Shown here piece after piece: positions 24,802 through 53,823 of a stretch of 64,000 bases of DNA. Within the stretch, counting starts at the first letter, position 1, and each line of letters begins with the position of its first letter. The position numbers and the translations under genes were made by a program. Source of the stretch: a bacterium (GTDB lineage: Bacteria > UBA8248); contig CBDBZY010000031.1 in assembly GCA_965213685.1 (NCBI GenBank), forward strand, positions 128,001 through 192,000, given 5' to 3'. The notes beneath the pieces are model-generated. The model worked only from the letters and a program-made list of their open reading frames with translations, was not told the origin of the DNA and did not search any database.

Positions 24802-25401
24802 ATGACCTGGATAGAGCCCATCTCCCCGGACGCTGCGGAGGGGGCGACGAAAAAAATTCTCGAAGACCTGCGCGCGGCGAGAAAAGCGGTTCCCAGGCTC
24901 TTTCTCCAGATGGGCCGAAGGCCCGGCGTTCTGGCCGGACGCGAGACGCTCCGCCGCTCGGTCCACGGCGGCTCCAGCCTGGGCAGGAGGCGAGAGGAGC
25001 TGCTCGCCTTCTATCTGGCGGCCCACGGCGGGTGATACGGCTGAGCGATGAACCACGGGCAGTTGTTCCGTGACGCGTGCGATGACGTCTCCATCGCCGA
25101 AGTGGCCGAGATACTCGACGCGCCCGCCCGGGCGCGAGCGCTCGACTCGGCGGACCGCGCCATGCTCGCGTATGCGGCAAAAATGACCCGCGCGCCTCGT
25201 CAACTGAGCGAAAGCGACATCGCGCGCTTGCGGCGCGCCGGCTTCAGCGAGGACAATGTGGTCGACATCATCGCGGCCGCGGCCTACAGAAACTTCGCCA
25301 ACGCCATCAACCACGCCTACGGGTACGTAGAGCAAAATCCCGAAGGCCCCGCAGAGTTGCAGGCCGCCATCCAGAGGTTGAAAAGGAAAATCGGTGGATA
25401 A
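24802..25401 (+). CDS. AhpD/CMD-like peroxidase, predicted selenoprotein with a UxxU motif (TGA at 25033 and 25042)
   Basis: Continuous frame RREELLAFYLAAHGG-U-YG-U-AMNH...AMLAYAAKMT...LRRAGFSEDNVVDI...NFANAI; both TGAs sit at the AhpD CxxC-xxx-H positions; AGGAG RBS before 24802. Confidence 0.85.
25054..25072 (+). promoter_or_regulatory. Putative bacterial SECIS hairpin (UxxU AhpD)
   Basis: CACGGG-CAGTTGT-TCCGTG stem begins 9 nt after the second UGA; apical GU. Confidence 0.55.
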
Positions 25402-26143
25402 AAAATCCCGCGCCCTCTCCTCCGCCTCCTGGCTGGGCCTGTTCGTATCGCTCGCCTGCGCATTGGCCGCCCTGGCGTCGGGGATGGGCCATCGCTGGGG
25501 CTTGTGGGATTTCGGCGCGGGGTTCCAGATTCTGAAGGCCGCCTCCATCGTCGCGCTCCTCTCCGTGGCCGTCTCCATGACGGGGGGAGTGTTCGCCCTG
25601 CGCGACGCCGCCAGAGCTAGGACGCTGGCCGCCGCCGCCGGCGTCGCACTCGGCTTCGGCGTGGCGGGCTTTCTCCACGCGCAAATGCAGATCGCCAGAC
25701 GGGTGCCCAGAATTCACGACATCACGACGGACGCGAAAAACCCGCCCGCCTTCCGGGCCCTCCTCCCGCTGAGAGAGGGGGCGAAAAACCCGCCCGCCTA
25801 CGAGGGGGCGCGCGTCGGACGGCTCCAGCACAAGGCGTATCCCGACATCGCGCCGCTCCTCTCCCGGGAGTCCAGGAGAGAGGTTTTCGGGCGCGCTCTG
25901 GCGGCCGCGCGCGCCATGGGCTGGCGGGTGGTGGCTTCCGACCCGGAGGAAGGACGCATCGAGGCGTATGACGAGACGTTCTGGTATGGCTTCATCGATG
26001 ACGTCGTCATCCGGATAACGTCGGAGGATGGAGCGACGCGCCTCGACATCCGCTCGAAATCCCGCGTGGGCGTGGGCGACGTCGGAGCGAACGCCAGGCG
26101 GATTCGCGGCTTTTTCCAAAAAATGAAAACTGCGATACACTGA
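25394..26143 (+). CDS. DUF1499 domain membrane protein
   Basis: Three TM segments, then PRIHDITTD, AYPDI, WYGFIDDVVIR, DIRSKSRVG.GDVGANARRI. Confidence 0.88.
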   Translation: MDKKSRALSSASWLGLFVSLACALAALASGMGHRWGLWDFGAGFQILKAASIVALLSVAVSMTGGVFALRDAARARTLAAAAGVALGFGVAGFLHAQMQIARRVPRIHDITTDAKNPPAFRALLPLREGAKNPPAYEGARVGRLQHKAYPDIAPLLSRESRREVFGRALAAARAMGWRVVASDPEEGRIEAYDETFWYGFIDDVVIRITSEDGATRLDIRSKSRVGVGDVGANARRIRGFFQKMKTAIH

Positions 26144-26214
26144 GGGCCTCTGCTTTTTCTGGCGAGGATGCGCCATGAGAGGATGGCGCCTCGAACATCC
26201 TGACGAGGAAGCGG

Positions 26215-28537
26215 ATGTCTGATTATCAGGTGCTGGGCAAACCCATCCCCAGGCTCGACTCGGCGGAGAAAGTCTCCGGATTCGCCGATTTTGGCGACGA
26301 TTTGCAAAGGCCCGGCCGCCTCGTCGCGAAATTGCTCCTCAGCCCGCACGCCCACGCCAAAATCCGGAAAATCGACGCCCGCGCGGCCCGGCAAGTCCCT
26401 GGCGTCCACGCCGTCGTCACGGCGGAGGATTTCTCCGGCATTCGCCACGGGAGGCTCGTGCGCGACGAGCCGCTGCTGGCCATCGACAAGGTGCTGTATA
26501 TCGGCGAGCGGGTGGCGGCCGTCGCCGCCGAGACCCCGGAGGCCGCGCAGGCGGCGATCGAGAAAATCCGTGTGGACTATCAAACCCTCCCCGCCGTGTT
26601 CACGACGGAGGACGCCCTCCAAGACGGGGCACCGCTCCTCCATGAGTCGCTGGATGATTTCATATCGTTTCCGGGCATCGTCCGCTATGGAAACGTGGCC
26701 GCGGAGATTCTCGTGCGCTCGGGCGATCCCGTCGAGGACGCGCTGGCGCGCGCCGATTTCGTCTTTGAGGACGCATACGAAACGCCCCGCGTTCACCAGA
26801 ATTATCTCGAACCGCGCGCCATGCTCGCCGAGCCCGGCCCCGAGGACAGCACGATCGTGCATTCCCCCACCCAGGCGGCCTTCGTGGTGCGCGCCATCTG
26901 CGCGGAAATCCTCGAACTGCCCATGAACAAGCTGCGCGTGGTGAGCACCCACGTGGGAGGGGCCTTTGGCGGCAAATCCCAGCACCTGCTGGAAGCCGTG
27001 GCCGTTCTGCTGAGCAGAAAGACGAACCGGCCCGTTCAGCTGACCCTCAGCCGCGAGGAGGAGACCATCACCGGAAACCCGAGACACGCCTACCACATGC
27101 GCTATCGGACGGGCGTGACCGGGGAGGGGAGGATCATCGCGCGCCATGTGGAAATCACATCGAACAACGGCGCCTATTGCATGACGGGGCCCATGGTGCT
27201 GGGAAAGTCCTGCTACACCAGCGGGGGGCCATACAAGATTCCCCACGTCCGGGTCGACGGCCTCCTCGTATATACGAACCTGCCCCCCAGCGGCTCCTAC
27301 CGGGGGCTGGGCGTGGCGCAGGTCGCCTTCGCCTGCGAGCGTCACACCGACCGCATCGCCTCCGAACTGCGAATGGACCCCCTCGCCTTTCGGCTCCGCA
27401 ACGCGATGGATGAAAACGACCGCGACCCCGCCGGCACGATCCTGCAAAGCGTGAGCATCAAGGAAACGCTGGAGTGCGCGGGCAGGCGGGCCGGCTGGAA
27501 GGAGCGGAGCGGCAAGCGCCGGGGCGGCGGCAGAATCCGGCGGGGGCGGGGCATCGGCTGCGCGCGCTACCCCACGGGGGGCGGCGCGTCGGGGGCTGTC
27601 GTGAAGGTGAACGAGGATGGCGGCCTCGCCGTGCTGGCCGGGTGCTCCGACCTGGGCACGGGAGCGGCCACCCTGATGGCGCAGGTGGCGGCGGAGGTCC
27701 TCCAGTCGGAGGTTGCGAAGGTGCGCGTTCACGTCGCCGACACCGAAACCACGCCCTTTGACGCCATCACCGCCGGCAGCCGAACCACGTTCAACATGGC
27801 ACACGCAGTGCGCATGGCGGCGGAGGACGCGCGGGAGCAGATGCTGCGCCAGGCGGCGCGCACCCTCGAATCCTCGCCGGAGGATTTGGACATCGGCGAG
27901 GGGAACATATTCGTGCGCTCGGCGCCCTCGCGCGCCATTCCGTTCGCCGAGGTGGCGCACGCGGCCGTCTGGAAGGGCGACGGCCCCGTGACGGGGCGCG
28001 GCGCCTACCGCGGAGAGAATCCGCCCCACCGGGCACACAACGTGCGGGGGCATCCGGAACCATCGAGGCCGGGGCCGGAATTCGCCACCCAGATCGCCGA
28101 GGTCGAAGTCGACGTCGAGACGGGAGAAACCTCGGTCGTGCGGATCACCAGCGCGCAAGACGTGGGCTTCGCCATGAACCCCCTCACCCTGAACGGCCAG
28201 ATAGAGGGGGGGCATCGCGCAGGGGCTGGGCTGGGCGCTGGCCGAGCGGATTCACCATGAGGGCGGCCTCATCACCCACCCGGACTTCGAGAGCCAGCTC
28301 AATCCCACGAGTCTGGACGTCTCGGACGTCGAGAGCGTGATCGTGGAATCGCCCGACGCGGAGGGCCCCTTTGGCGCGAAAGGAGCGGGGGAGATGCCGC
28401 TCATTCCGGCTGCGCCCGCCATCGCCAACGCGATTGCCGACGCCATCGGGGATCCGGCGAACCCGCACCTCAACAGGCTGCCCATCGCACCGGAAGACAT
28501 CGTCCGCGCGGTTCGGGAGAACAGCCCCGCCCCCTAG
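26215..28537 (+). CDS. Xanthine dehydrogenase/CoxL-family molybdopterin-binding subunit, apparent frameshift in G-run ~28208
   Basis: SPHAHAKI, YLEP, VGGAFGGK, YRGLG, AGSRTT, GQIEGG|IAQGLG, GPFGAKGAGE. Confidence 0.9.
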
Positions 28538-28538
28538 T

Positions 28539-29822
28539 CTATTCGTTTTTCAACGCGAACGTTTCGTCGTAAATATCAAAGCTGGAAGACGCCGCCATAT
28601 CCCGCGCCCGCGCGATGAGCCGGCGCGACAACGCGGAGATATTCGGGTTTTTGAGGAAATTGACGTAGAAGCCGTGATAAAAGGCGTCGGGCCGCACATG
28701 CACGCGCACCCGGAGCCGCACGGCGCCCTTCGCGCGCCTCCTTCCATATCGGAACGTGATGGATTTTTGCGGGGGAATGCGCGTGTCATATATCTCGCGA
28801 CGAAAATCCGGCGATAGTTTCCGCTCCATCACGTCCACCTGCCTCGAACCCGGTATGGTCTCTCCCTTCTCGTCCTCCATCTCGGAGATGAGGTCCACGG
28901 CGGGCGTGATGTAGGTGGGAAAATAATGACCGGCCCCTGAATTCGTGATCGTGATCCGGGCGGCGACGCGCTCCCCCGGGACCTTCTCGTCGAGTGCGAC
29001 GTCTATCTGCACGGCACCCTGGGTCATCTCCTTGTCATGGATTCCCCGCCACAGATGCGCGCGCCCGGGCATGTGGCAACTCTGGCAGGCGACGCCCTCC
29101 GCACCCCAAAGCGAGTTTTTCCATTCATTGTATGTATTCTGAATCGGCTTTCCGTTCGGCCCGGCGAACGTGTGCTGGTGGCAGCCCATGCAAAACTCCG
29201 CGCGGCTGAAGAAAGGCGTGCGCTCCACTCCGGCGTGCGGGCCGCTGCTCGTCGCGTCGTTCACCCCCTCCGGGGTATCCTTCTTGGGCGGGCCATGCAC
29301 CCTCCACTGCCGCACATGACATGCGGCACAGGCCAGGCCATGCATCTCCAGCTGCGGGTCGTGCGTCGGGTTTTTCCCCCAACGCGCAAAGGGGCCCACG
29401 CCCAGCTTCGCCTTTTTCTGCTGCTCCGCCAGAGGCGCGTGGCATTCGTTGCAGTCCCGCGCCCCCTCGGGATCCGTCTCCCACATATCGACGAGTTGTC
29501 CATAGAAGCCCGGGCTCATCGCCTTGGCGTGAAGGGTGGTTCGCCACTGCTTGTACTGCTCGGGATGGCAGCCCCCGCAACTCTCGGGCCGAAGGGAGCG
29601 CTCGGCGCCCTCGTATGATTTGGGCGCCTCGCCCATGGGAGGCAGCGGATAGCGAAAATGCGCGTCCACAAAATCTCGCCAATCCTTCCATTTTCCGGGA
29701 CGCGCCTCCTTCCCCGCCGCCTCGACGGAGGGGTGGGCGGGCGCATCCGGCGCATCCTGCGAGACGCAGGGGATGAGGACGAAGAAAATACCGAGAACGG
29801 CTATCCTGAACGCAAAACGCAT
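28539..29822 (-). CDS. Pentaheme cytochrome c (c554/c552-like)
   Basis: Five CxxCH motifs (CGGCH, CNECH, CAACH, CMGCH, CQSCH), N-terminal signal and GAGHYFPT C-terminal domain. Confidence 0.88.
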   Translation of the reverse strand: MRFAFRIAVLGIFFVLIPCVSQDAPDAPAHPSVEAAGKEARPGKWKDWRDFVDAHFRYPLPPMGEAPKSYEGAERSLRPESCGGCHPEQYKQWRTTLHAKAMSPGFYGQLVDMWETDPEGARDCNECHAPLAEQQKKAKLGVGPFARWGKNPTHDPQLEMHGLACAACHVRQWRVHGPPKKDTPEGVNDATSSGPHAGVERTPFFSRAEFCMGCHQHTFAGPNGKPIQNTYNEWKNSLWGAEGVACQSCHMPGRAHLWRGIHDKEMTQGAVQIDVALDEKVPGERVAARITITNSGAGHYFPTYITPAVDLISEMEDEKGETIPGSRQVDVMERKLSPDFRREIYDTRIPPQKSITFRYGRRRAKGAVRLRVRVHVRPDAFYHGFYVNFLKNPNISALSRRLIARARDMAASSSFDIYDETFALKNE

Positions 29823-30141
29823 CGCACGCTTCCTGAGCCGGCGGCCGGCCTGCGCGTTCCATCTATTTTTGCGGCGCGACATTCGCGCGAAGACGCGCCG
29901 GAGCGGGAAAAACGCAAGGAATTGTAGCGTCCCCGTCCGTCTGTTTCCAGCGGGCATCCAGACCGCCCCCCTTTCCCGAGGGGGGTGCGCTCCGCCGCCA
30001 AAGGAGCCGGTGGTTCGTCGCCTGCGAAAAACGACGCCCTCCCGGTGCGGGCGCGGCGACTTTTACTTGCGGGATGGAATCCGATAGGGTCTGTGCGTCC
30101 AGACGACCGATTCCGACGCTTCCCGCCGAACCTGGAGTCCT

Positions 30142-30639
30142 GTGATGAATCTCGCCATACGCCCGGCCACCCCTGCGGACTCGGAGAAAATCATCGCATT
30201 CAACATGGAGATGGCGTGGGAGAGCGAAAGCCTGCGCCTCGACCGCGCGACAGTCCGCCGGGGAGTGGAAAAATCCCTCTCCGACCCATCGCTGGGCCGA
30301 TACTATCTCGCGCATCTCGGAGGCGAAACGCTGGGCCAGATTCGGGTCACCCTGGAGTGGAGCGACTGGAACAACGCGCATTACTGGTGGATTCAGAACG
30401 TATACGTCATCCCCTCTGCGAGAAGGCAGGGGGTCTACAGCGCCCTGCACCATTACGTGAAAAATCTCGCCGGCGGGGCGGGCGCCTGCGGCCTGCAGCT
30501 ATACGTGGACGCGCAAAACGCGGACGCGCAGCGGGCCTACGAAAGGCTGCGCATGGAGCAAAGCCACTATCTGATTTTCGAGCAGGTCGCAGAGGGGAAG
30601 AACCGCCAGGAGAAGCGCCGCGCCCCCTCATCCGCATGA
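30142..30639 (+). CDS. GNAT family N-acetyltransferase
   Basis: IRPATPAD, EWSDWNN, IQNVYV...RRQGVY, N..AQRAYERL. Confidence 0.88.
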   Translation: MMNLAIRPATPADSEKIIAFNMEMAWESESLRLDRATVRRGVEKSLSDPSLGRYYLAHLGGETLGQIRVTLEWSDWNNAHYWWIQNVYVIPSARRQGVYSALHHYVKNLAGGAGACGLQLYVDAQNADAQRAYERLRMEQSHYLIFEQVAEGKNRQEKRRAPSSA

Positions 30640-30727
30640 TGGCCCGGCCTCTCGCATGCGGCGGAGGGCGTCGTCCGCCGCCGTCCCCGCCCCGAGCGAC
30701 GCGAATCCCGGGACGTTCGGGGGGAGG

Positions 30728-31273
30728 CTAGCGCCCTTCTTGATTTCTCTTGAGGGGGATGACGTCGGCAGGTTTCCGCGCGCCCTTGCGGCGGCTCGCC
30801 CGCCAGGAGGGAGGCCAGACATAACGCACCCGCCACGCGGCGCGCGCCGCGCCTCCCACCACCCACGTGGCGACGCTTCCCGCGGCGCGGGTTCTTTGTC
30901 CCAGCGAGCGGAACGCCTTTTTCCCGCCCTCCTCGCCGATGGAGACGAGGCGCGACGTCGCCTCCCGCGCCGCGCCAATCGGCCGAAGCGCCTGGGCGAT
31001 GGCCTGGCGCAAAACCCACCGAATCATCCAGCAGAACAAGACGGAAAGCGCCAGAAAGACGCCCAGCACCTTGAACCCCCGTTCGGGTTCATCCACTATC
31101 ATCACGCTCGTCTGGGCGATGCCGTAAAACGCCAGACCCACCATCGCCAGGCCAACGGCCACGGCACCGCCCGAGCGCGTTATCACCCGCAAGAGGCCAA
31201 ACATCCCCATCTCCCAGGACATGCCGATGCGAGAGAACCTCCTCGATGCGCCCACCATACCCCATTTCCCCAA
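30728..31273 (-). CDS. Hypothetical membrane protein (start uncertain)
   Basis: Two hydrophobic segments and a basic C-terminus ending DVIPLKR; fills the gap between the GNAT gene and serS. Confidence 0.45.
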   Translation of the reverse strand: MGKWGMVGASRRFSRIGMSWEMGMFGLLRVITRSGGAVAVGLAMVGLAFYGIAQTSVMIVDEPERGFKVLGVFLALSVLFCWMIRWVLRQAIAQALRPIGAAREATSRLVSIGEEGGKKAFRSLGQRTRAAGSVATWVVGGAARAAWRVRYVWPPSWRASRRKGARKPADVIPLKRNQEGR

Positions 31274-31317
31274 CCGAAATCCAGCGCGAGTGCCTCACGT
31301 CCTGCGAGGCGTTTCCG

Positions 31318-31346
31318 TTGACGCGCGAAAACTCTCGTTTTATGTT
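31318..31346 (+). promoter_or_regulatory. Sigma70-type promoter upstream of serS
   Basis: TTGACG, 17-bp spacer, TATGTT. Confidence 0.55.
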
Positions 31347-31397
31347 CACTGTCCCGGGCGCGAACGCCGCGACGCCTCGCCGTGAAGGAGCCGGAAA

Positions 31398-32684
31398 TTG
31401 TTGGACATTCGCCTTATCAGAAACGATCCGGAAGGGGTGGCGCGCGCCCTCGCCCGCAGGGGCGGTGCCTGGGGCATCCCGGAGGTGCTGGAAATCGACG
31501 CCCGAAGACGGGACTTAACCCATCGGGTCGAGAGCCGGGTGGCCGAGGTGAGAAAACGCAGCAAGAAAATCGGGGAGCTCAAGCGCAACAAGGCGTCCGA
31601 TGAGGAGGTGGCGGCGTTTCTGAACGAGAGTCACCGATTGACGGCCGAGGCCAAATCCCTGGAGGGAGAGCTCGCGGGCCTCGCGCAAAAGCAGAACGAC
31701 CTCCTCCTCGGCCTGCCCAACGTGCCGCATGCAACCACGCCCGACGGACAAGGCCCGGCCGAGAATGCCCTCCTGAGAGTCTCGGGCGAGAGGCCGGCTT
31801 TCGACTTCCCCCCCAAGCCGCACGACGAGCTGGGCGACGCCCTCGGCATTCTGGACATGAAGCGCGCCGCAAAAATAGCCGGTGCGCGCTTTGCGCTATA
31901 CCGGGGGGCGGGCGCGCGCCTGGAGCGCGCCTTGATCAACTTCATGCTCGATCTGCATACGAGCGCGCACGGCTACACCGAGTGGCTTCCGCCGTTCATG
32001 GTGAACCCCAAGGCCATGACGGGCACTGGCCAGCTGCCCAAGTTCGAGGAGGACCTCTTTCGGGTGGACGACGGGCGATACTACCTGATCCCCACCGCCG
32101 AGGTCCCCATCACCAACATCCACCGGGAAGAAATTCTCGACGGGCGGGATTTGCCGCTCAAATACACGGCCTACACCCCCTGTTTTCGCAGCGAGGCGGG
32201 CTCCTACGGCCAGGACACGCGCGGCCTCATCCGCCAGCATCAGTTCAACAAGGTGGAGCTCGTCCAGTTCAGCCGGCCGGACGGGAGCTATGAGGAGCTG
32301 GAAAACCTGACGGCCGACGCCGAAGAGGTGCTGAGGCACCTGGGGCTGCACTACCGGGTCGTCACGCTGTGCGCGGGAGACCTCGGGTTCTCGGCCGCCA
32401 AAACGTATGACATCGAAGTCTGGGTCCCCTCCCAGAACACGTACCGCGAAATCTCCTCCTGCAGCAACTTTGAGGATTTTCAGGCCAGGCGCGCCGCGAT
32501 TCGCTTTCGCCCGCAGCCGGGGGCCAAACCCGAATTCGTCCACACGCTGAACGGCTCCGGCCTCGCCGTCGGTCGCACCCTGGTGGCGATTCTGGAGAAC
32601 TTCCAGAGAGCCGACGGAAGCGTGGAGATACCCGAAGCCCTGAGAGCCTACATGGGCGGGCGGGAGAGGATTGTGGCTGCCTGA
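31398..32684 (+). CDS. serS: Seryl-tRNA synthetase
   Basis: [61 protein letters not shown]. Confidence 0.97.
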
Positions 32685-32773
32685 ACGGCTCGTCCGTTCT
32701 TCATCCGCCGTCGCGCGCCATGGTCGCGCGCCATGCTAGTATGGTTCCGGAGTTTCCGCCTCCCGGGGTGTGC

Positions 32774-32859
32774 GGAGGGATGGCCGAGCGGCCGAAGGCG
32801 GTGGTCTTGAAAACCACTGAGCGAAAGCTCCGGGGGTTCGAATCCCTCTCCCTCCGCCA
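32774..32859 (+). tRNA. tRNA-Ser (anticodon TGA)
   Basis: GGAGGGA/TCCCTCC acceptor stem, G73-CCA, anticodon loop CT-TGA-AA, long variable arm, GGTTCGAATCC. Confidence 0.95.
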
Positions 32860-32949
32860 TGGAAAACGCCGGATGCGGCAGGTCGGGAATCCTCCGGACG
32901 GCGGGGATAGCCGCCGGAGAGGTTGTGCGATAGAATGAGCACCCCGCAC

Positions 32950-33041
32950 GGAGAGATGGCCGAGTGGCTGAAGGCGCTCGCCTGCTAAGCGAGTAGGCTG
33001 GGAAACTGGCCTCGAGGGTTCGAATCCCTCTCTCTCCGCCA
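32950..33041 (+). tRNA. tRNA-Ser (anticodon GCT)
   Basis: GGAGAGA/TCTCTCC acceptor stem, GCCA end, anticodon loop CT-GCT-AA, long variable arm. Confidence 0.95.
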
Positions 33042-33190
33042 TCGTTGCCCCGGCACAGGGGGCGTTTCTCGCTCTCCCGCGCGCCTTGCCGCCTCATGAG
33101 ATCCCGGGGAGGAGAGGCCCGCGCGCGTTCGCTTCCGGTGCGGGGCCGCGCATCCCTCCTCCCCCCGGCGATGTGGATGGAGACGGCGTC

Positions 33191-33727
33191 TTGGACACGG
33201 CAGGCAAGGCTGGGCAGACCGCGCGACGCAACTTCTTTCGCATGGACGTGGTCCAGAGGCTCCCCATCCCGTTGGACGCCGCCTGGGCGTTTTTCTCCGA
33301 CCCCCGGAATCTGCGGGAGATCACGCCGCCCGAACTCCACCTGGTCGTGGAGAATGCGCTTCCCTCGAGAATGCACGCAGGCATGCTCATTCGCTATCGG
33401 GTCAGGCCTGTTTGGCGGATTTCCATCCACTGGACAACGGAGATCACCCACGTGGAGGAGGGTCGCCTCTTTGTGGACGAGCAACGCTTCGGCCCCTATC
33501 GCTTCTGGCATCACCAGCACCATTTTCACGTCATCGAGGGCGGCGTCGAGATGCGGGACGTCATCCACTACATGCTGCCGCTGCTGGGGCCTTTGTCATT
33601 CCTGGCCGACCGCCTCGTCGTGCGCCCGAGGCTTCGCCACATCTTCGCTTATCGCGAAGAGGTGCTCGCGCAGCGCTTCGGGCGCATGGCTGACGACGCC
33701 GGGTCCCCGACGACATGCGGAGGTTGA
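33191..33727 (+). CDS. SRPBCC family protein
   Basis: AWAFFSDPRNL..ITPP, W.TEIT, FVDEQRFGPYRFWHHQHHF, IFAYR; start inferred. Confidence 0.82.
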   Translation: MDTAGKAGQTARRNFFRMDVVQRLPIPLDAAWAFFSDPRNLREITPPELHLVVENALPSRMHAGMLIRYRVRPVWRISIHWTTEITHVEEGRLFVDEQRFGPYRFWHHQHHFHVIEGGVEMRDVIHYMLPLLGPLSFLADRLVVRPRLRHIFAYREEVLAQRFGRMADDAGSPTTCGG

Positions 33728-33823
33728 TGCCCCGTCCCATGCCTGCCAGGATTCGTGGATTATTCTTCCCCCCCATACGATCGGGAAAACGCCCTCTCTC
33801 ATGCCGCTACCCTGGAGATGCCC

Positions 33824-34651: not shown

Positions 34652-34685
34652 TCGTCGCTCCGGGCCGGGACGCGCTCCGTGGGCG

Positions 34686-35294: not shown

Positions 35295-35505
35295 GGGGCG
35301 CTCTCATTGCGTTTCTGAAAACGGCGACGCAAAAACGACGGCGGAGGCGAACGAGTGCCGCCAACCGGGGAGCGGGCGCCGCCCATTCCCCACAAAGCAC
35401 AGCCTCGCCACATATCCCGCGCGGCGGACGGAAACGGCCTCGGCGAGAACCTCGTTTCGGCAACCCCGGCTCCCCCCGGGGGGCGCCTGCGGCCGGCCCG
35501 CCAGT

Positions 35506-35823
35506 TCAGAACAGGCCGGGAATGCGCATGCCGCCTGTGAGCTTCTTCATCTGCTCGGCCATCATGTCCCTGCCTTTTTTCAACGCCTCATTGCAGGCGG
35601 CGCGCACCAAATCCTCGAGCATCTCCACATCGTCCCGGTCCACCACCTGCGGGTCTATCTTCACCGAGACCACATCGCCCGCGCCATTGGCGGTGACGTT
35701 CACCATGCCGCCGCCGGCGGAGGCCTCCACCGTTTTATCCGCCATCTCTTTCTGGATGCTCGCCATTTTGTCCTGGAGCTGGCGCGTCTGCTTCATCAAA
35801 TTGCCGATGCCGCCCTTTAGCAT
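35506..35823 (-). CDS. ybaB: YbaB/EbfC nucleoid-associated protein
   Basis: ASAGGGMV, DVEMLEDLV, TGG..IPGLF; lies between dnaX and recR. Confidence 0.95.
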   Translation of the reverse strand: MLKGGIGNLMKQTRQLQDKMASIQKEMADKTVEASAGGGMVNVTANGAGDVVSVKIDPQVVDRDDVEMLEDLVRAACNEALKKGRDMMAEQMKKLTGGMRIPGLF

Positions 35824-35883
35824 TGGAACCTCCCCGATATATTATCCCCTCGCCACGCACGATATGGGATTTTCGTCCGGCTT

Positions 35884-37584
<1,701 letters not shown>

Positions 37585-37656
37585 CCGGAATCCATCCCAA
37601 ACGATTGAACGAATTCGGCCCTGGAGATGGAGCGTCCTGTATGAAAAACGCGCGAA

Positions 37657-39797: not shown

Positions 39798-40196
39798 CTA
39801 GACGTCCTCCACCAGCTCCCACAGCGTGCCCATCGTGCTCTTGGGCTGGATGAAGGCGATGAGATGCCCGCCAAAGCCGGGCCTTGACTTCTCGTCGATG
39901 AGCTCGAAGCCCTGCGCTTTCAAGTCGGCCAGGACGCCGTCAATGTTTTTCACGTCAAAGGCCACGTGGTGGATGCCCTCGCCGCGCTCCTCGATAAATT
40001 TGGCGAGACTCGTCCCTTCCCGAAGAGGCGAGATGGGCTCCACGAGGTCGCCTCCCAAGTCCAGCATCGCCAGATCGGTCGCGCCATCGCTGGAAGTCTC
40101 CCTTGCGAGCAGCTGCGCTCCCATGCTTTCGTACAGGGCGATGGCGGCGTCCATGTCCCGCACCGCAACCCCGATGTGATGCACCTTGTTGAACAT
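39798..40196 (-). CDS. VOC-family protein, methylmalonyl-CoA epimerase-like
   Basis: HHIGVAV, KFIEERGEGIHHVAF, LIDEKSRPG, GTLWELVE. Confidence 0.82.
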   Translation of the reverse strand: MFNKVHHIGVAVRDMDAAIALYESMGAQLLARETSSDGATDLAMLDLGGDLVEPISPLREGTSLAKFIEERGEGIHHVAFDVKNIDGVLADLKAQGFELIDEKSRPGFGGHLIAFIQPKSTMGTLWELVEDV

Positions 40197-40299: not shown

Positions 40300-40460
40300 T
40301 CGTATTTGTATCATCCTTCCTGTTTTGCGTCTCGTCTTCGCTCCCTGGATGAGGCCCCGGCCGGATTCTCCCGCCGGAAACTATACTTATACCAGCGTTT
40401 GCCATATACTGGCTTCCTGCCTGAAATGATGGAAACAACATGCGCATGAGGAGAAGATTC

Positions 40461-41021
40461 ATGGAAGGTCCCGTTGATGGACACAGCACGTCGACCGTTC
40501 CGGGCGAGCGCGTCATAGACAAGCCGGAACTCCCCCTCAAAGGGCTGTATACGGACAACACCGTCCACGCGGAGATGGTGGAGGGCTCCTTGCAGCTGAA
40601 ACGCGGCACCGCCGGGGAGTTCGAGATATTTTGTGACGAGGGTGCGCACATTGGCGGAACGGCCCGGTATCCCACGCCGATGGCCTATCTGGCGATGGCG
40701 ACGGGATTCTGACTGCTCACCCAGGTGTCGCGGTACGCGCACATGATGAAGCTGACCATCAAAGGGGCGAGCGTCTCGGTTCGGTTCAGAAAAATTCTGG
40801 GCGGCTCCGTTCTGAAGGGAACCGTGTTCAACAAATGGGAGGGCGTGGACACGCATCTGCGGGTGGAATCGGACGAGCCGGAAGAGAAGCTCGCCCATCT
40901 GATAAAAAACGCCAAGAATGGCTGCTTCGCAGAGTGCCTCATCACGGAGCCAGTGCCCCTGACCTCCACCGTGGAAGTGAACGGCAAGCCATTCAGAATC
41001 GAGGGCATAACCGCCGACTAG
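40461..41021 (+). CDS. OsmC-like protein, predicted selenoprotein (TGA at 40710)
   Basis: FCDEGAHIGG...PTPMAYLAMATGF-U-LLTQ...AKNGCFAE in one frame; GAGGAG RBS; SECIS-like hairpin. Confidence 0.87.
40725..40742 (+). promoter_or_regulatory. Putative bacterial SECIS hairpin (OsmC-like gene)
   Basis: GTG-T-CGCG-GTA-CGCG-CAC: 12 nt after UGA, 5' bulged U and apical GU, similar to the E. coli fdhF SECIS layout. Confidence 0.7.
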
Positions 41022-42674: not shown

Positions 42675-42798
42675 GGAAGAGCGCGTTTGCTGCGGAACGT
42701 CATCCGCCAAACCGGCCCGTCCGGGAGGGGCGCGCGCGTCTTCCTGGATGGACGAGAGGGCGTTGCGTGAACGACCTCCCGGGTGAGGGAATCCCGCC

Positions 42799-43716: not shown

Positions 43717-43724
43717 GGGCGAAC

Positions 43725-44636: not shown

Positions 44637-44639
44637 GCG

Positions 44640-46638: not shown

Positions 46639-46687
46639 GTCGGGAGGCGGTGCCTGCGCAACGCGCGGGAGGCCCGCCCCTCCCCCT

Positions 46688-47608
46688 CTAGGGCGTGCCG
46701 ATGAGCTCCATGGCGCGCGCGGCCATGCCGGAGTTGCTGTGCCCCACGTCGGGGACGATCTCCAGCGCCCATCGATACGGGTACCCCTTTCGCCTGGCGT
46801 ACGCCTTTGCGCGGGCGTAAAAATTCCTGCCCCGCGCCAGGCGGTGCGCTCCCTGGGCGACGGCCTCATCCTCCAGGTTGAGCGACGGGTGGCGGGGGTC
46901 GTCGTCTTCCGCGCCCAGCAATATCGTGAGGCGCGCCGCGAGAGATTCCCGCAAACTCGCCGCGCTCAAACCGATGTTGGATATCCCGTAGGGAATCTCC
47001 ACGCCCTCATCCAGCATGGTGTACCAGCCCGGGTTCGCCGCAACGGCCCGCCGGATGCGGGCGCGGGGGTGGAAAAGGACGAGCCGATGCACGAACTGCC
47101 CGCCGGCCGAGTGCCCGTAAATGTCATACCGCGCCGCTTTCAGTCCGTTGGCGGTGCGAACAAAATCGAACAGCTTCTCGAGAATCGTGAACGTCCACTC
47201 CGCCCGGGGCTTGCGCTTGCCGTTCGGGCGATACACGTTGCCCAAATGATACCGCCACGCGCCTGGAAAGTGCTCGTCCGAGAATTCGGGAACCAGCAAA
47301 ACAAACCCGTTGACGTTGGCGAAAGGACGCCACTCATCCCTGTATTGCTCTGCGTCGCGGCCGTTCCCGTGCATGACGAACACCACGGGGGCGGATTTTT
47401 CCACGCCCTCGGGCCAGTGGTACCAGACCTCGACGGGCAAGCCGGGGTTGCTCCCCCCCTCTTCAAACACAAAGCTGCCCGTGCCCATCTTCATAGCAGG
47501 CTTCCCGCTCTCAGGCTCCGCCTTCGACACGGCGCCTCCCGCCAGAAAGGCGGACATCAAAACGATGACGAATCGACGAGAGAACCCGCCCTTCTCCCCG
47601 GCGTCCAT
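46688..47608 (-). CDS. Exported alpha/beta hydrolase
   Basis: VMHG, YGHSAGGQFVHR nucleophile elbow, VGH catalytic His. Confidence 0.82.
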   Translation of the reverse strand: MDAGEKGGFSRRFVIVLMSAFLAGGAVSKAEPESGKPAMKMGTGSFVFEEGGSNPGLPVEVWYHWPEGVEKSAPVVFVMHGNGRDAEQYRDEWRPFANVNGFVLLVPEFSDEHFPGAWRYHLGNVYRPNGKRKPRAEWTFTILEKLFDFVRTANGLKAARYDIYGHSAGGQFVHRLVLFHPRARIRRAVAANPGWYTMLDEGVEIPYGISNIGLSAASLRESLAARLTILLGAEDDDPRHPSLNLEDEAVAQGAHRLARGRNFYARAKAYARRKGYPYRWALEIVPDVGHSNSGMAARAMELIGTP

Positions 47609-47758
47609 GCCCCACCCTTTCGCGCGCGCAAGCCATCCCCGGCCTCATCCCGGAGATGATGGTAGCACTCCCGTTCCCCATCGACCACGAGTGCCGGCGA
47701 CGTTCCGGCGGACCGCAACGAAGCGGCGGTCGGCGACCCCCATCGCCCCCCGCGGAGG

Positions 47759-47788
47759 TTCACTTCCTGCGCAAGACCGCCGTATAAT
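47759..47788 (+). promoter_or_regulatory. Sigma70-type promoter for the Sec-DUF442 gene
   Basis: TTCACT, 18-bp spacer, perfect TATAAT in a GC-rich context. Confidence 0.5.
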
Positions 47789-47845
47789 GCGCCCGCACGC
47801 CCCGGGGAGGAATGGAGACATCCGCTCATTTTCGATGGAGTTCGC

Positions 47846-48298
47846 ATGGACTATTTCGACGCTTCCCAAGACATCTCCTTCGGCTCGCAGCCCACGCTGG
47901 ACGACCTCAAGGCGCTCGCCGCCAGAGGCGTCAAAACCATCATCAACACCCGTTTTCCGGACGAGGAGCAGGGCGCGCTTCCGCCGGCGCGCGCCAAGGC
48001 CGAGGCCGAGGCGCTGGGGATGGCATACCTCAACATCCCCGTCTCGCCCGTCGCGTTCACCGACGACTCCCTCGCCGAGGTGAGCCGGGCGCTGCGCGAG
48101 GCGAGGTCCGACGGCCCCGCCTTCGTGCACTGAAAGGCGACGGGGCGAGCCGGGATTTGCTCGCTACATCACCTGGCGGAGGAGAATGATTGGACGGGCG
48201 ATGAGATGGAAAGGGCGGCGGACGCCACCGGCTACGACTGGCGCGAGGCGAGGCTCGCGGCCAAGTTCCGGGAATTTTTCGACAGACGGGGGCGATGA
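47846..48298 (+). CDS. DUF442/Blh-like phosphatase-fold (sulfurtransferase) protein, predicted selenoprotein (TGA at 48131)
   Basis: QPT..DL..LA..GVKTIINTR.PDEE, YLNIPV, GPAFVH-U-KATGRAG, then EMERAADATGYD; the frame stays open for 54 codons after the TGA. Confidence 0.83.
48144..48165 (+). promoter_or_regulatory. Putative SECIS hairpin (DUF442 gene)
   Basis: GGCGAGC-CGGGATTT-GCTCGCT stem begins 10 nt after UGA; G-containing loop. Confidence 0.55.
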
Positions 48299-48457
48299 GC
48301 GCCCCGTCGGCCGGGTGCGGGAGGGCAGGGGGGGGTCTTGTGCACGTCGTTCCCCACCGGGAGCGCATCCCCGCCGGTCTCATTCCTCGCCCAGAGGCGT
48401 CCCGCGCGCGCTTGGGGGCCGCTTCCGTCAAACTCCCCCCCCTCCTTTGGAGGAACC

Positions 48458-48874
48458 CTAGAGGAACTCGTGCACCTCGGCGAACATCCCCTTCACGATT
48501 CCCCCGCTCAAGTGACCTACCAGGACTTCCTCCGGCCGATACGGCCCCCCGCTCAGCGCCAGGTGGAGGTGGATATACGGCTGGGGGCCATCCCAGTTTT
48601 CGTCCCCCCGAACGGCAGGGGGCTTCTCCGGCCAGCTGATGTTGCCCACGGCGAGGAGCTCGCGCCAGTCGTCGAAGCGTCGCCGGGCGGAGGGGCCGAT
48701 GATCTCCCGGAAGCCGGTGCGGACGTCGGATTCCTTCAGGGCGCCGAACACGATGAGCGAGGCGCTTCGTATGTTCTCCTCCTTCACGAACCGGTGGAAC
48801 TCCCCGAAAAAATCATCGTCCTCATCAAATTCCAGATGAAAGACGCGGCCCAGGCGCTTCTGCTCCGCTCGCAT
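48458..48874 (-). CDS. PPC/DUF296 domain protein
   Basis: FGAL, ELLAVGNI, PYIHLHLAL, VGHL. Confidence 0.8.
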   Translation of the reverse strand: MRAEQKRLGRVFHLEFDEDDDFFGEFHRFVKEENIRSASLIVFGALKESDVRTGFREIIGPSARRRFDDWRELLAVGNISWPEKPPAVRGDENWDGPQPYIHLHLALSGGPYRPEEVLVGHLSGGIVKGMFAEVHEFL

Positions 48875-49763
48875 GTCCCATTCCCCCCCTCACCTCCGCG
48901 TAGAGGTTCTCCAGACCCCGCCGAAAGGTCCTTCTCCTGTGCTCCACCCAGGACGCGCCCCGCGACCGGTCGGACCAGAAAAATTTCTCGAACGCGGCGT
49001 CCGCGACGGCCTCCTCGCGGGCCATTCCCCTCCCCAGCAAGCTCTCCATGATCTCCCACATCTCCACGAAGTCGTTCCTGAGCCTCCGGACGCCCTCCAT
49101 TCCGCATATTTCTCCGTGCCCGGGAACGACATATTCCACCGACAGCCCCTCGATCCACTCGAGTGCCCCGATCCATTGCCGAAACCGGGCCTCCCGCATC
49201 CCCGGCCCCGGCTCGTTGATAACCACGTCGCCCGTGAAGATGACGCCTTCCTCGGGCACGTACACCGAACTGCAGGCGGGCGTGTGGCCCCCCAGACAAA
49301 AAACCTCGAACGTCAGGGGGTGGAGGTGAAGCGTCATCTCCTTTTCAAAGCACACCTGCGGCAGGGGGAGGACGGCCTCCGCGATTTCGTTCGCCTCCTC
49401 GCGTTCGCCGATGTCGTTGAGGGTGTTGACGAAGGTTTCGCGTCCCGCGCGGGAGTTCGCCTCGGCGGCGGCGAGCTCCTCGAAAACACGCCGGGGGGCG
49501 ATGGAAACCACCCCCGCATCCTCAATGAACGCCGCTCCGATGACGTGGTCGCCGTGATAGTCCGTCGCGATGCGGTATCGAACGCCTTTCGGGCTGAGGG
49601 TTCGAAGCTCCCCCTGCCAGTGGCGCGAATCGGAGGGCCGCACGGGGCAATCCACGAGAACCACGCCGTCGGCGGTAATCCCCGCTCCCACATTCGCCCA
49701 CAGATACTCCGTCTCCGCCACCAGGTGCTCGCTCAGCCGCCGCATGACGCACATCCCGTCCAT
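48825..49763 (-). CDS. MBL-fold metallo-hydrolase (cyclase-like)
   Basis: TDYHGDH, GGHT, FTGD, VPGHG; C-terminal boundary uncertain. Confidence 0.85.
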   Translation of the reverse strand: MDGMCVMRRLSEHLVAETEYLWANVGAGITADGVVLVDCPVRPSDSRHWQGELRTLSPKGVRYRIATDYHGDHVIGAAFIEDAGVVSIAPRRVFEELAAAEANSRAGRETFVNTLNDIGEREEANEIAEAVLPLPQVCFEKEMTLHLHPLTFEVFCLGGHTPACSSVYVPEEGVIFTGDVVINEPGPGMREARFRQWIGALEWIEGLSVEYVVPGHGEICGMEGVRRLRNDFVEMWEIMESLLGRGMAREEAVADAAFEKFFWSDRSRGASWVEHRRRTFRRGLENLYAEVRGGMGHASGAEAPGPRLSSGI

Positions 49764-49862
49764 TCAGGCGCAAATCGGACGATCTTCATGGACAATGTGG
49801 ACGCACCGGGCGGGAGAGACGCGCGGGACGCGGCGCCTCCCGCGCCCGGGCCTCCTCCATCC

Positions 49863-50852
49863 CTATTGTCTGATTTTCACGCCCGCGTTCTTGTAAATGT
49901 TCTTGTTGCTGTCGTACTCCGCCTGCAACTGCTTCTGGAGCTCCTCCCCGACGACCGGCTGCGCGCTGACGCCCATCTTCCTGAGAAGACGCTTGAAGGT
50001 CTTGTCCTTGGCCATCTTCAGGAGGGCCTTCCGCAGAATGTCGATTCGATCCGCGGGCGTTCCCGCGGGCGCCATGACGATTCGCTTGGAGGAAAGGAGG
50101 AGGTCCACCCCCTGCTCCCTGAAGGTCGGCACGTCCGGGAAGAGCGGGAACCGCTTGGCGGCGGCGACGCCGAGGATGCGGATTTTGCCGGACTTGTAGT
50201 TGGAGAGAACGCCCCCCGTAGCCGGGTTGGCTCCCGCCGTGTCCACATGGCCGCCCAGCATGGCGAGCATGGCGGGGCCGCCCCCCCGGAAGGGCACGTG
50301 GTTCAGCGTCACCTTCATGTCATAGGCGATCTTCATGAGCATGGTGTGGCTGAGGCCATACGTTCCCGTGGAGCCGTGCATGACCTTTCCCTTGCTCTTT
50401 CGGGCCGCGGCGATGTAGTCCTTGAAGTTCTTCCACGGCTTGCTCCCCAGCGTGACCAGCAGGTAGGGAAGTTCGTTGATCTGGAACACGGGCACGAAAT
50501 CATTGAAGGGGTCGAACCCCATGTCCTTCACGTGGGGGGACATGTAAAGATGGCTGTTCGCCCCCATGGCGAGGGTGTAGCCGTCGGGCTTGGCCCGCTT
50601 GAGCGCTCCCATCCCTATCTTTCCGCCGCCGCCCGGCATGAGCTGCACGAACGCCGGCTGGCCAATGTACTGGTGCAGGACGCTGGCCACGGCGCGCGCG
50701 TGGAGGTCGTGCGACCCGCCGGCACCCAGCGGCACAATGATCTTGATGGGTTTGGAGGGATACTTCTCCGCGCTGGCCAGCGGCGCGGAGAAGGCGAGAA
50801 GGGCGAGCGACAGAACTGCCGCCCAGGCGATTTTCCAGGATTTGCGCATCAT
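49863..50852 (-). CDS. tctC: Tripartite tricarboxylate transporter substrate-binding protein (TctC/Bug)
   Basis: YPSKPIKIIVP..AGG, PGGGG, PDGYTL, VPFRGG, PDVPTF.E.G. Confidence 0.9.
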   Translation of the reverse strand: MMRKSWKIAWAAVLSLALLAFSAPLASAEKYPSKPIKIIVPLGAGGSHDLHARAVASVLHQYIGQPAFVQLMPGGGGKIGMGALKRAKPDGYTLAMGANSHLYMSPHVKDMGFDPFNDFVPVFQINELPYLLVTLGSKPWKNFKDYIAAARKSKGKVMHGSTGTYGLSHTMLMKIAYDMKVTLNHVPFRGGGPAMLAMLGGHVDTAGANPATGGVLSNYKSGKIRILGVAAAKRFPLFPDVPTFREQGVDLLLSSKRIVMAPAGTPADRIDILRKALLKMAKDKTFKRLLRKMGVSAQPVVGEELQKQLQAEYDSNKNIYKNAGVKIRQ

Positions 50853-52387
50853 CTTCGGTCCTCCTTTGGGGGGTCTGAATGGGCTCCCGTTCGCGGCCCC
50901 AGCGTCGACGCCCAGGGACGCCGCCAGATGCTCAACGCCAGCATCAACACCGTCATGCCTATGAAGAAAGCCGCGATGGGGCGGGTGATGAAAACGGAAT
51001 AATCGCCCCGCGAGATGATGAGCGCCTGCTGCAGGGCCTCCTCCGCCCGGGGCGCGAGGATGAACGCGATGACGAGCGGGGCCATGGGAAATTTCAGTTT
51101 CCGGAGCCCGTAGCCGAACAGCCCGGCGATGAGCGCCAGAACGAGGTCTCCCAGATTGCTGTGATAGACATACGCCCCCACGAGGCAGGAGAGAATGATG
51201 CCCGGCACCAGTATCGACTGCCGGATGGAGACGATCTTGGCGAACATGCCCGTGAGAAGCCAGCCCTGGATCAGCATGATGGGGTTTCCCAGCATCAGCA
51301 GGGTGAAGATGGCGTACATGGTGGGGGCGTGTTCCTGGAAGAGGCTCGGCCCCGGGCGCAGCCCCTGGGCGATGAACGCGCCCATGAGAATCGCCGCGCT
51401 CGGATCGCCCGGAATCCCGAACGTGAGGGTGGGTATCAGGTCCGCCCCCGCGACCGCGCTGTTGGCCGCCTCGGACGCCGCGACGCCCTCGTAGCTGCCG
51501 TGGCCGAACTCCTCTGGCCGCTTCGAGGCGCGCTTCGCCGCCGCATAGCTGACGAAGGTGGCGATGGCCGCCCCCGTCCCCGGAATCGCGCCGACGAAGG
51601 TGCCTATCATGGAGGAGCGCAGGATGGTTCGGGCGGAATTTCGCACTTCGCCGATGCGCAGCTTTCTGCCGCCGCGCAGGCGCAGCGTCTCGGGCGGGCG
51701 CGCCAGGTCCGCCGCCCGCTTCTCGGCCTGGATGAACACCTCGCTGACGGCGAACAACCCGATGAGCAGGGGCACCACCCCCACCCCCTCCGCCAGGCCG
51801 GGAAGGCCGAACGTGAAGCGCTCTCCCCCCGAGACAATGTCCGTGCCCACCATGCCGAGCTGGAGTCCTATGAGGGCGGACAGCACCCCCTTCACCACGG
51901 AGGCGCCCGTCACGCTGGAGATGATGGCCATCCCCATCAGGAGGAGGCCGAAAAACTCGGCCGGCCCAAACAGGAGCGCCACCGCGGCCAGCGGGAGCGC
52001 CGCCAGAATCAAGACGAGGTCGCTGAACGTGTCCCCGATGGTGGAGGAGTACAGCGCCATCTGAATGGCGCTCCTCGCCTCGCCCTTTTGCGCGAGCGGA
52101 AATCCGTCCATGCAGGTCGCCGCGGCGGGCGCCGTCCCGGGCGTGTTGACCAGGATGGCGGGGATGGAGCCCCCGAAGAGCGTCCCCTTATGGATACCCA
52201 ACAAAAAGGGGATGCCCAGAACGGGGGGCATGAAAAAGGAGAAGGGAACCAGAATCGCCGTCGCCATGACGCTGGTGAGTCCCGGAATCGCGCCCACCGT
52301 GATGCCCACGAAGACGCCCACCGCGATCATGGCCAGGGCCTGCCAGGTAAGCGCCATCGTCACTCCCTGGAGTATCTGTTCGAACAT
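50849..52387 (-). CDS. tctA: Tripartite tricarboxylate transporter large permease TctA
   Basis: GAIPGL, GGSIPAILVNTPGT, EAANSA, TFGIPG, GLRPGP. Confidence 0.92.
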   Translation of the reverse strand: MFEQILQGVTMALTWQALAMIAVGVFVGITVGAIPGLTSVMATAILVPFSFFMPPVLGIPFLLGIHKGTLFGGSIPAILVNTPGTAPAAATCMDGFPLAQKGEARSAIQMALYSSTIGDTFSDLVLILAALPLAAVALLFGPAEFFGLLLMGMAIISSVTGASVVKGVLSALIGLQLGMVGTDIVSGGERFTFGLPGLAEGVGVVPLLIGLFAVSEVFIQAEKRAADLARPPETLRLRGGRKLRIGEVRNSARTILRSSMIGTFVGAIPGTGAAIATFVSYAAAKRASKRPEEFGHGSYEGVAASEAANSAVAGADLIPTLTFGIPGDPSAAILMGAFIAQGLRPGPSLFQEHAPTMYAIFTLLMLGNPIMLIQGWLLTGMFAKIVSIRQSILVPGIILSCLVGAYVYHSNLGDLVLALIAGLFGYGLRKLKFPMAPLVIAFILAPRAEEALQQALIISRGDYSVFITRPIAAFFIGMTVLMLALSIWRRPWASTLGPRTGAHSDPPKEDRR

Positions 52388-52395
52388 GCGGACCC

Positions 52396-52879
52396 CTAGT
52401 CAAACAGGCTGCCCGAGGGCAGCGCCAGCTGAAAGCTGAACCAGAAGAAATAGTTCACCCCGATGGGGAACAAAACGGCGATGGGCACGACGTATCGCCA
52501 GTCGCGGGTGCCCATGAACATCATCAAGGCGGCGAGGAAAACGGGAGAGCTCAGCAGGAAGCCAAAAAAAAAAATACGCCAAGGACTGGACGTAGGCGTA
52601 GCAGGCCACAAAGACCACGCCCACCTGCAGGAGCGCCCTCTTGGTGGCTATTTGCCGGCCGCCCGCCTCCTTCCTCCTGAGCGCGCCGAACAGGAGCATG
52701 AGGCTCACCAGCGCGAAGAGGACGACGGAGGAGGTGGGAAAAAAGGTGGGCAGGAAGACGGCGTTCGAGACATCCTCCGGCGGAATGGAGTATTGAATCT
52801 GCGTGGGGATGATGTAGAAAAAGCCGACGGCGCTGTAGATGAGAAAAACGACCGCCGTGTAGACATCCGCCTTTCGCAC
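52396..52879 (-). CDS. tctB: TctB small membrane subunit, apparent frameshift in A11 run ~52570
   Basis: Four TM segments, PTFFP, C-terminal FQLALPSG; lies directly upstream of tctA. Confidence 0.75.
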
Positions 52880-53167
52880 GCCCGGCTCCTTCCGCTGACA
52901 TGGAGCGCGCACCGCCGGCATTCATGACGCCCGACGATGCCGTGATTCCGGAACTCAACCGCTCGCTGCTTCACTTTTGGCGCAGTGGACGCAGTCTAGC
53001 AGAAATGGCCGCGCGCGTCACCACGCCGCGCGCCCGGAGGCGGGATTTTCACTCATAAGCACCCCCTCCCGTTCCTTCCCGCCTGCGCGAAATGTGGGAT
53101 AATCTGCGAAAATGAAGTTTTCAGATGCGCAAGCAGACCTCGCCAGAGAACAAAAGGAGCGGATTTC

Positions 53168-53823
53168 ATGTCCAGAGTCCCCGCTGCTCAGCCAGGAGGG
53201 TGCGGAGGGCGAGATCGCGCGCACCTTCGACATCCTGGGGAACTTTCAGCCGCACCAGGTACACTCCACCCGCGCGACGGCCCACTCCCCGTTTCTCGCC
53301 CGAATCTTCTACCCTCTCGTTCAGACCCTGATGCGCGAGGGGCTGGGAACCGTCCTCTCCTCGAAGGTCAAGGAGATCGCCGTCATCAAGACCAGCCAGC
53401 TCAACGGGTGCGACTACTGACTGGCCCACAACACCGCTCTCGGCCGGGTGCTGGGAATCACCGGCGCGCACGTCGCCGCCATCGGGTCGGACGACTACAT
53501 GGATTCGCCCCTCCTCACGCCCAGGGAGAAGGCGGCCGTTCTCTGGGCCGAACACGTGACGAGGAACACCGCAAAGTTTCGGGACGACGTGGCGGAGGAG
53601 GTGCAGGCGCACTTCCCGGACGCGGAGTTCGTCGAACTCACCTTCGTCATCAGCTACTTCAACATGCGCAACCGCTACCACGACTCCCTGCGGCTGCCGA
53701 ACGACGAGGAGAGCGTCGTCGAGGGACGTCGGACGGCTTCGGCCGGACCCGGAGAAACTGAAAGCGTTTCTGCAGGACATTCTAGACGCATGGCCGGACG
53801 CCTTCCCGGAACCCAACCCGTGA
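53168..53823 (+). CDS. AhpD/CMD-like protein, predicted selenoprotein with CxxU (TGA at 53418); apparent frameshifts near 53180 and 53723
   Basis: KEIAVIKTSQLNGCDY-U-LAHN...REKAAVLWAE.VT...VELTF.ISYFNM.NR; AAGGAG RBS before MSRVP; the stitched end reads PDPEKLKAFLQDILDAWP. Confidence 0.83.

Follow-up and report, generated by a model that had tools for sequence, protein, structure and literature searches.

The 64,000-nucleotide window analysed here (positions 128,001 to 192,000 of contig CBDBZY010000031.1, assembly GCA_965213685.1, from a bacterium of the UBA8248 lineage) contains, between its positions 24802 and 53823, four genes whose reading frames are interrupted by five TGA codons. Very probably, these are genuine selenoprotein genes of one bacterium with selenocysteine (Sec, U) at catalytic positions. 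As judged from the sequences, Sec use is a trait of the lineage, with relatives keeping the same TGAs and at least 43 such genes in the present genome. This reading is based on the location of the TGAs at Cys positions, the presence of the Sec machinery, conservation in relatives, domains that run across the TGAs and covarying hairpins in three families. In the proposed mechanism, UGA would be decoded as Sec by SelB and tRNA-Sec where an mRNA hairpin just downstream directs it, and a UGA lacking such a hairpin would be a translation stop. Sec would then stand in place of the nucleophilic or redox Cys of small peroxide, thiol and sulfur-handling enzymes, which are AhpD/CMD-like, OsmC-like and DUF442 sulfurtransferase-like.

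All four genes lie on the plus strand, and their translations through the TGAs bear out the proposal of an earlier note on this DNA that all five codons are in frame at catalytic Cys positions; genes 1 to 3 were placed by alignment to Cys homologs, and gene 4 by its own CxxU motif together with a Pfam CMD domain spanning U. Gene 1 (24802..25401) would encode an AhpD-like protein with a UxxU motif. It reads HGGUYGU across the TGAs at 25033 and 25042 (TGA TAC GGC TGA, 25033..25044), and the CxxC of the solved AhpD-like proteins 6k40 and 3c1l occupies the columns of both U residues. A TIGR01926 match over residues 22-196 spans U and scores 83.1 bits against a cut-off of 81.8. The predicted product of gene 2 (40440..41021) reads GFULLTQ across the TGA at 40710..40712 and belongs to the OsmC-related model NF041052 (OsmC_like_Se; 170.2 bits, cut-off 95), whose UxxT motif is present as ULLT and whose second Cys is at GCF. 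The Pfam OsmC domain crosses U (residues 73-175), and a Cys of the OsmC-like structure 3cje aligns with it.

Gene 3 (47846..48298) reads VHUKATGRAG across the TGA at 48131..48133 and ends at an ordinary TGA stop at 48296. Its PF04273 match (46.8 bits, cut-off 26.1; BLH_phosphatase, residues 7-102, crossing U) places it in the DUF442/BLH_phosphatase family of the protein tyrosine phosphatase (PTP) fold, with U replacing the Cys of the HCxxGxR loop to give HUxxGxR. Of the 38 database homologs in a 40-row alignment, 36 have Cys in the U column and two have Ser, and the His and Arg of the loop are invariant. The AlphaFold model of the full protein is one compact PTP-fold domain with a predicted local distance difference test (pLDDT) score of 93.1, and it best matches the DUF442 structures 3gxh and 2f46 (template-modelling score 0.71-0.78). 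These DUF442 structures were found by a profile search; phmmer with gene 3 gave no match in the PDB. Among the NCBIfam models, gene 3 stays under the cut-off of the TIGR01244 sulfur transferase model (53.2 versus 85.85 bits).

Gene 4 (53112..53823), a CMD/AhpD-like gene, reads NGCDYULAHN across the TGA at 53418..53420, and its CMD domain (PF02627, residues 79-147) scores 31 bits against a cut-off of 23. With NCBIfam it remains under the TIGR01926 cut-off at 52.4 bits, and neither gene 4 (57 bits) nor gene 1 (40.4 bits) reaches the 310 bits of the YciW-related (seleno)protein model NF053654. The frame of gene 4 shifts near 53730, after which the C-terminus in the +1 frame (...KLKAFLQDILDAWPDAFPEPNP) agrees with the paralogs and ends at 53823.

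The TGAs are retained in related genomes. Gene 1 has a match in 37 of 42 genomes of the family (f1), and its two-TGA form was found at 24 loci in three genera, namely in 19 of 23 genomes of its own genus (this genome included), in the one genome of genus g3 and in four of five of genus g2; GGUYGU is present at all 24 loci of this clade. A paralogous clade, with a copy in this genome on contig C42, has GGCYGU instead. For gene 3, a match was found in all 24 other family genomes searched and in none of 16 genomes outside the family. Exactly one TGA is present in 45 of 48 matches in relatives, the other three being one with two TGAs, one contig-end fragment not covering the site and one weak match with TAA. 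VHUKATGRAG is retained in 12 of 12 orthologs retrieved. When all 51 genomes in the phylum were searched with a profile, 59 matches to gene 3 were obtained, 57 of them with a TGA; 35 of 41 other family genomes were positive, usually with two paralogs of this Sec-DUF442 gene. Relatives of gene 4 occur in 42/42 family genomes, with exactly one TGA in all but three of the matches listed. Across the relatives that keep the TGAs, protein identity is 43-89% and the downstream frame is intact. In several relatives, genes 1, 3 and 4 lie within 25-70 kb of one another. A separate search for related loci among genome contigs returned only four distant Cys-form loci and no near relative.

To define what belongs to the organism, the composition of the assembly has to be considered. 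The guanine-plus-cytosine (GC) content is bimodal, with 49 contigs (3,074,173 bp, among them the window contig, C31) at no less than 0.59 and 22 contigs (4,895,517 bp) at 0.33-0.54. Open reading frames (ORFs) of at least 300 aa number 3792 in the high-GC part and 480 in the low-GC part, and none of nine EF-Tu-family matches is on a low-GC contig. The high-GC contigs carry one bacterial tRNA set of 49 genes including transfer-messenger RNA. On the low-GC contigs, for example C64, C18, C41, C16, C51 and C7, there are 193 tRNA-like matches dominated by a few anticodons (CTA 40, AGC 29, AGA 25, GGT 22, AGT 22), and this DNA looks like foreign, possibly eukaryotic repeat-rich DNA that was binned with the bacterium. 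Relatives of the same genus, several of them single-contig, measure 2.9-4.6 Mb. Considering the GC split, the ORFs, the tRNA set and the sizes of the relatives, we treated the high-GC contigs as the organism, and all genome-wide statements here refer to these 49 contigs of a mixed bin.

The machinery for Sec is present on the high-GC contigs, as the earlier note had made a test of its proposal. selA (564 bits) and selB (370 bits) adjoin on contig C5, a tRNA-Sec with anticodon UCA (78.6 bits) is on C44, and selD lies on C31 at 100900-102400, 26 kb upstream of the window. The N-terminus of SelD reads AGGUGSK, and thus SelD would be a selenoprotein too. Another UCA-anticodon tRNA, which might point to decoding of UGA as Cys, was not found on the high-GC contigs. 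TGA is still an ordinary stop, as the same note had held: it ends 729 of 1512 well-scoring ORFs and is the commonest stop (TAG 602, TAA 181), and within the window it closes ybaB (at 35506) as well as gene 3.

The density seen in the window extends over the genome, which the earlier note had raised as a possibility, with the scope of the 3.07 Mb of high-GC contigs. We trained a codon log-odds model on these contigs and scored 68,118 TGA codons in six frames, of which 447 were flanked by coding-like sequence in both directions (at least 15 codons each, with a score above 0.15); the 275 scoring above 0.2 were examined and the other 172 were left out. Acceptance required a domain across the TGA at the position of a Cys motif, using Pfam on 80 aa on either side and NCBIfam on longer reads. 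Forty of the 275 candidates were accepted, four of them (L084, L094, L101 and L108) on the basis of NCBIfam or paralogy, having no Pfam match in the short window. A phmmer search with the 40 genes against six-frame segments added two DsbA-like genes with U 11-12 residues from the start, in which Pfam DSBA was confirmed. Counting SelD as well, the genome has at least 43 selenoprotein genes with 44 Sec codons, a lower bound that misses families lacking a Pfam domain, genes with short flanks and genes broken by indels. AhpD/CMD-like genes are the most numerous (13), followed by UGSC (6), OsmC-like (5), PrdB/GrdB-like, peroxiredoxin (Prx)/TlpA-like and DsbA-like genes (3 each), deiodinase-like, DUF442 and rhodanese genes (2 each), and single genes for a thioredoxin-like protein, O6-alkylguanine methyltransferase (MGMT; PUHR), DUF3179 and SelD. 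The NCBIfam cut-offs are exceeded by three of the five OsmC genes (OsmC_like_Se) and five of the six UGSC genes (UGSC_fam). In complete single-contig relatives, the UGSC genes also carry the TGA (4/4, 6/6, 8/8 and 2/2; 6/6 in this genome).

The remaining 235 candidates were rejected as same-frame junctions of neighbouring genes (for example Fer4/DCC1, FAS1_DH/MaoC, ThiS then UUU), antisense frames or reads with no domain over the TGA. In Era (C9:23013) and a CocE/NonD hydrolase (C12:49095), the TGA lies within a frameshifted stretch and not at a Cys according to NCBIfam; Lon, with two TGAs, was dropped on its Pfam result, and in the phmmer candidate at C31:327095 we took the TGA for the normal stop codon of an adjoining gene. 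Selenoprotein genes of different families were often 4-5 kb apart, as for OsmC/UGSC at C31:8964/12831, UGSC/MGMT at C13:34617/39885 and CMD/UGSC at C31:328108/332203. In the MGMT gene on C13 (TGA at 39885; TIGR00589, 98.8 bits, L057:9305-9865), Sec would occupy the acceptor site, with PUHR replacing PCHR. The three PrdB/GrdB-like selenoproteins (L094, L105 and L119, on C33, C39 and C44) have a UxLC motif and score 117-170 bits with the PrdB model, under its cut-off of 300.

Candidate hairpins for a selenocysteine insertion sequence (SECIS) were compared among paralogs and orthologs, and pairs with compensatory changes were found in three families. The CMD hairpin has a 6-bp stem with an apical loop from 24 nt past the first UGA base, and among eight paralogs four of the six pairs show compensatory changes. 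Its loop is GGUC in seven of the eight; the copy in gene 4 (53436..53451, 18 nt past the first base of UGA) has GGCC and one mismatch, a U-U pair. The UGSC hairpin has eight pairs, two of them with compensatory changes among paralogs. In the OsmC hairpin, which in gene 2 lies at 40726..40743 with a GUA loop, one pair is compensated through a synonymous site among three paralogs. For gene 1, the candidate hairpin (CACGG...CCGUG, 25054..25072; six pairs) is located downstream of both UGAs, at a distance of 23 nt from the first and 14 nt from the second, and we infer that one hairpin serves both UGAs, which are 9 nt apart. Counting degenerate codons with an invariant residue only, 3 of 10 vary within the 13 codons that follow the first UGA, versus 46 of 49 elsewhere (p = 3.6e-5), a freezing of synonymous sites that favours a hairpin at this place. 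The candidate of gene 3 (48144..48165) has a stem of 7 bp closed by the 8-nt loop CGGGAUUU, and the sole change in the stem among 12 orthologs is A-U versus G-U.

Several points weigh against the selenoprotein reading or parts of it. Selenium insertion at these UGAs is a prediction from the sequence evidence, as are the enzyme activities of the four proteins. The gene 1 hairpin shows compensatory changes in none of its six pairs and overlaps the conserved NHG...FR codons, and the synonymous-site test for gene 3 was not significant (5/11 versus 46/72, p = 0.20). The mean folding energy downstream of 40 Sec-TGAs (-19.05 kcal/mol) did not differ from that downstream of 1500 Cys codons (-18.47 kcal/mol, p = 0.24) or 644 TGA stops (-18.75, p = 0.29); having no contrast with controls, folding energy was uninformative in a genome of 65% GC and was dropped as a SECIS test. 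In the assembly, the coding sequence of selD is broken up among three frames, probably by an indel error. Most CMD-like genes fall under the NCBIfam equivalog cut-offs, and 14 of the 21 Pfam CMD matches in this genome have no TGA. The share of CMD matches with TGA is 7/21 here and 7/16, 7/18, 9/21 and 5/11 in the single-contig relatives. Since many CMD domains are ordinary Cys forms, Sec is no wholesale replacement of Cys, and an impression that Sec forms outnumber Cys forms, given by a phmmer search with 10 targets without U, did not hold against the 14 of 21 Pfam matches.

An origin of the TGAs in faulty sequencing or assembly, or in pseudogenes, has next to no probability. Indel errors do occur in this assembly, in selD over three frames, in gene 4 near 53730, and also in Lon and Era; however, the errors seen are indels and not substitutions, and the same TGAs recur at the same codons in 24 to 42 independently assembled genomes with the frame intact, in line with the argument already made from the window that indel-type errors cannot account for them. 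We consider it extremely improbable that this organism reads UGA as a standard amino acid such as Cys, Trp or Gly, be it by reassignment or through suppression by another tRNA. Nothing specific to this genome favours such a reading; when selenium is scarce, the Sec pathway might place Cys at UGA codons. The number of ORFs ending in TGA speaks against a general reassignment, the sole UCA-anticodon tRNA found is the canonical tRNA-Sec with selA, selB and selD present, and the in-frame TGAs (40 of 275) were accepted only at catalytic Cys positions, in 13 families.

If translation stopped at the TGAs, the shortened proteins or separate halves would be the functional products, as public gene calls would have it: they give 95-aa fragments and a 53-aa C-terminal piece, and all 55 public homologs of gene 3 end before the Sec codon, 53 of them at 95 aa, which agrees with the expectation that standard annotation fragments such genes. 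Yet truncation would remove half the fold together with the catalytic residue, the full gene 3 protein is modelled as a single compact domain (pLDDT 93), the part downstream of the TGA is conserved in frame and the nearest Cys homolog is full length; this alternative is therefore highly unlikely. There is also very little chance that the genome-wide richness is an artefact of two organisms in one bin. The bin is indeed mixed, with 3.07 Mb of high-GC and 4.90 Mb of low-GC DNA, but the Sec machinery and all 43 genes are on the high-GC contigs with their one tRNA set, and relatives of the same genus, several of them single-contig, carry the same genes.

The richness in selenoproteins is not new, and this genome would be a further instance of a recorded pattern. 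A 2026 review (PMC13188914) credits the Olavius algarvensis Delta 1 symbiont with 57 selenoprotein genes and a Methylomirabilota metagenome-assembled genome (MAG) with 63, and BSepDB (2026, PMC13326102) has Olavius Delta 1 in its top ten with 63 genes. The same top ten contains three MAGs that GTDB places in the phylum UBA8248; they are called Nitrospinota, Nitrospinaceae and Nitrospinae bacterium and have 54, 50 and 48 genes. deep-Sep (PMC12013277) reports selenoproteomes of 46 genes in Desulfosediminicola flagellatus and of 39 in Syntrophobacter fumaroxidans. The UBA8248 MAGs, Olavius Delta 1 and the Methylomirabilota MAG resemble the present genome in having a very large selenoproteome of mostly small redox proteins. 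Our figure of at least 43 is a minimum and comes from another method than the BSepDB counts. Two of three source names of public gene 3 homologs are Nitrospinae bacterium and Nitrospinaceae bacterium, the kind of name borne by the UBA8248 MAGs in BSepDB, in line with a probable place of this genome in UBA8248. The view in the earlier note of a hidden selenoproteome is thus right in that routine annotation misses it, and does not stand in that BSepDB already lists members of the phylum with 54, 50 and 48 genes.

Most of the families are also known. The review catalogues AhpD-like (TIGR01926, CxxU, one Sec), CMD-like, OsmC-like (UxxT), UGSC and DUF3179 proteins, along with MGMT (as a predicted selenoprotein), deiodinase-like, DsbA-like, rhodanese, PrdB/GrdB, Prx and thioredoxin (Trx) proteins. 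Gene 2 is an ordinary member of the OsmC-related group NF041052 with the catalogued UxxT motif and nothing notable that differs. Genes 1 and 4 share the fold family of AhpD-like proteins (TIGR01926; CMD PF02627; NF041238) and carry the redox motif at the position usual for them, and gene 4 and the C42 paralog of gene 1 have the CxxU form as catalogued. In contrast to this single-Sec form, gene 1 has Sec at both positions (UxxU), as do the 24 loci in three genera. In the literature accessible to us, UxxU was not found in AhpD-like proteins, the proteins with UxxU there being Prx-like, a metal-binding protein and FmdB. Gene 3 shares the PTP fold and the HCxxGxR loop of DUF442/TIGR01244 proteins (2f46, 3gxh) and differs by its Sec nucleophile; no seleno-specific NCBIfam model matched it. 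Neither DUF442 nor its sulfur transferase and phosphatase terms were found in the available text of the review, and DUF442 combined with selenocysteine was not found in the accessible literature, where the BSepDB supplement is a species list and the families of the database itself are not covered.

It is possible, and we propose it tentatively, that both are uncatalogued variants: a DUF442 protein with a Sec P-loop nucleophile (HUxxGxR), and an AhpD-like clade with an obligate UxxU (diselenide) centre whose UGAs apparently share a hairpin. To our knowledge, no other natural enzyme of the cysteine-phosphatase fold is known to use Sec, and Sec-DUF442 would be the first. The protein probably carries a persulfide or perselenide. 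In Blh (NF040641), DUF442 is the N-terminal domain and its metallo-beta-lactamase (MBL) partner is fused; next to gene 3, by contrast, the MBL-fold gene (48825-49763, minus strand) adjoins in convergent orientation and is not fused. By analogy with the DUF442-dioxygenase fusion in Blh, this neighbour hints at a common sulfur pathway.

The contexts and orientations of the four genes differ, and they are therefore not in one operon but separate transcription units, as had been thought from the window. Gene 1 extends into the start of a DUF1499 gene (25394-26143), with a molybdenum subunit of the xanthine-dehydrogenase type downstream, and gene 2 lies upstream of an oligopeptide ABC transporter. 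Gene 3 is alone on its strand and convergent with a PCC-domain gene and the MBL-fold gene, and gene 4 is flanked by an opposite-strand TctABC transporter and a UvrD helicase. The window also contains, at 31398-33041, a seryl-tRNA synthetase gene with two tRNA-Ser genes directly behind it, one with anticodon TGA and the other with GCT. Seryl-tRNA synthetase charges tRNA-Sec as well.

Taken all together, routine annotation breaks dozens of the redox genes of this lineage at Sec codons, and functional and metabolic readings of these genomes under-count enzymes that handle peroxide, thiols and sulfur. A density of about one selenoprotein gene in every 70 kb would put the organism among the richest known and make it heavily dependent on the supply of selenium. 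The UxxU AhpD-like clade and the Sec-DUF442 family provide conserved cases for studying the gain from Sec over Cys and the recoding of closely spaced UGAs.

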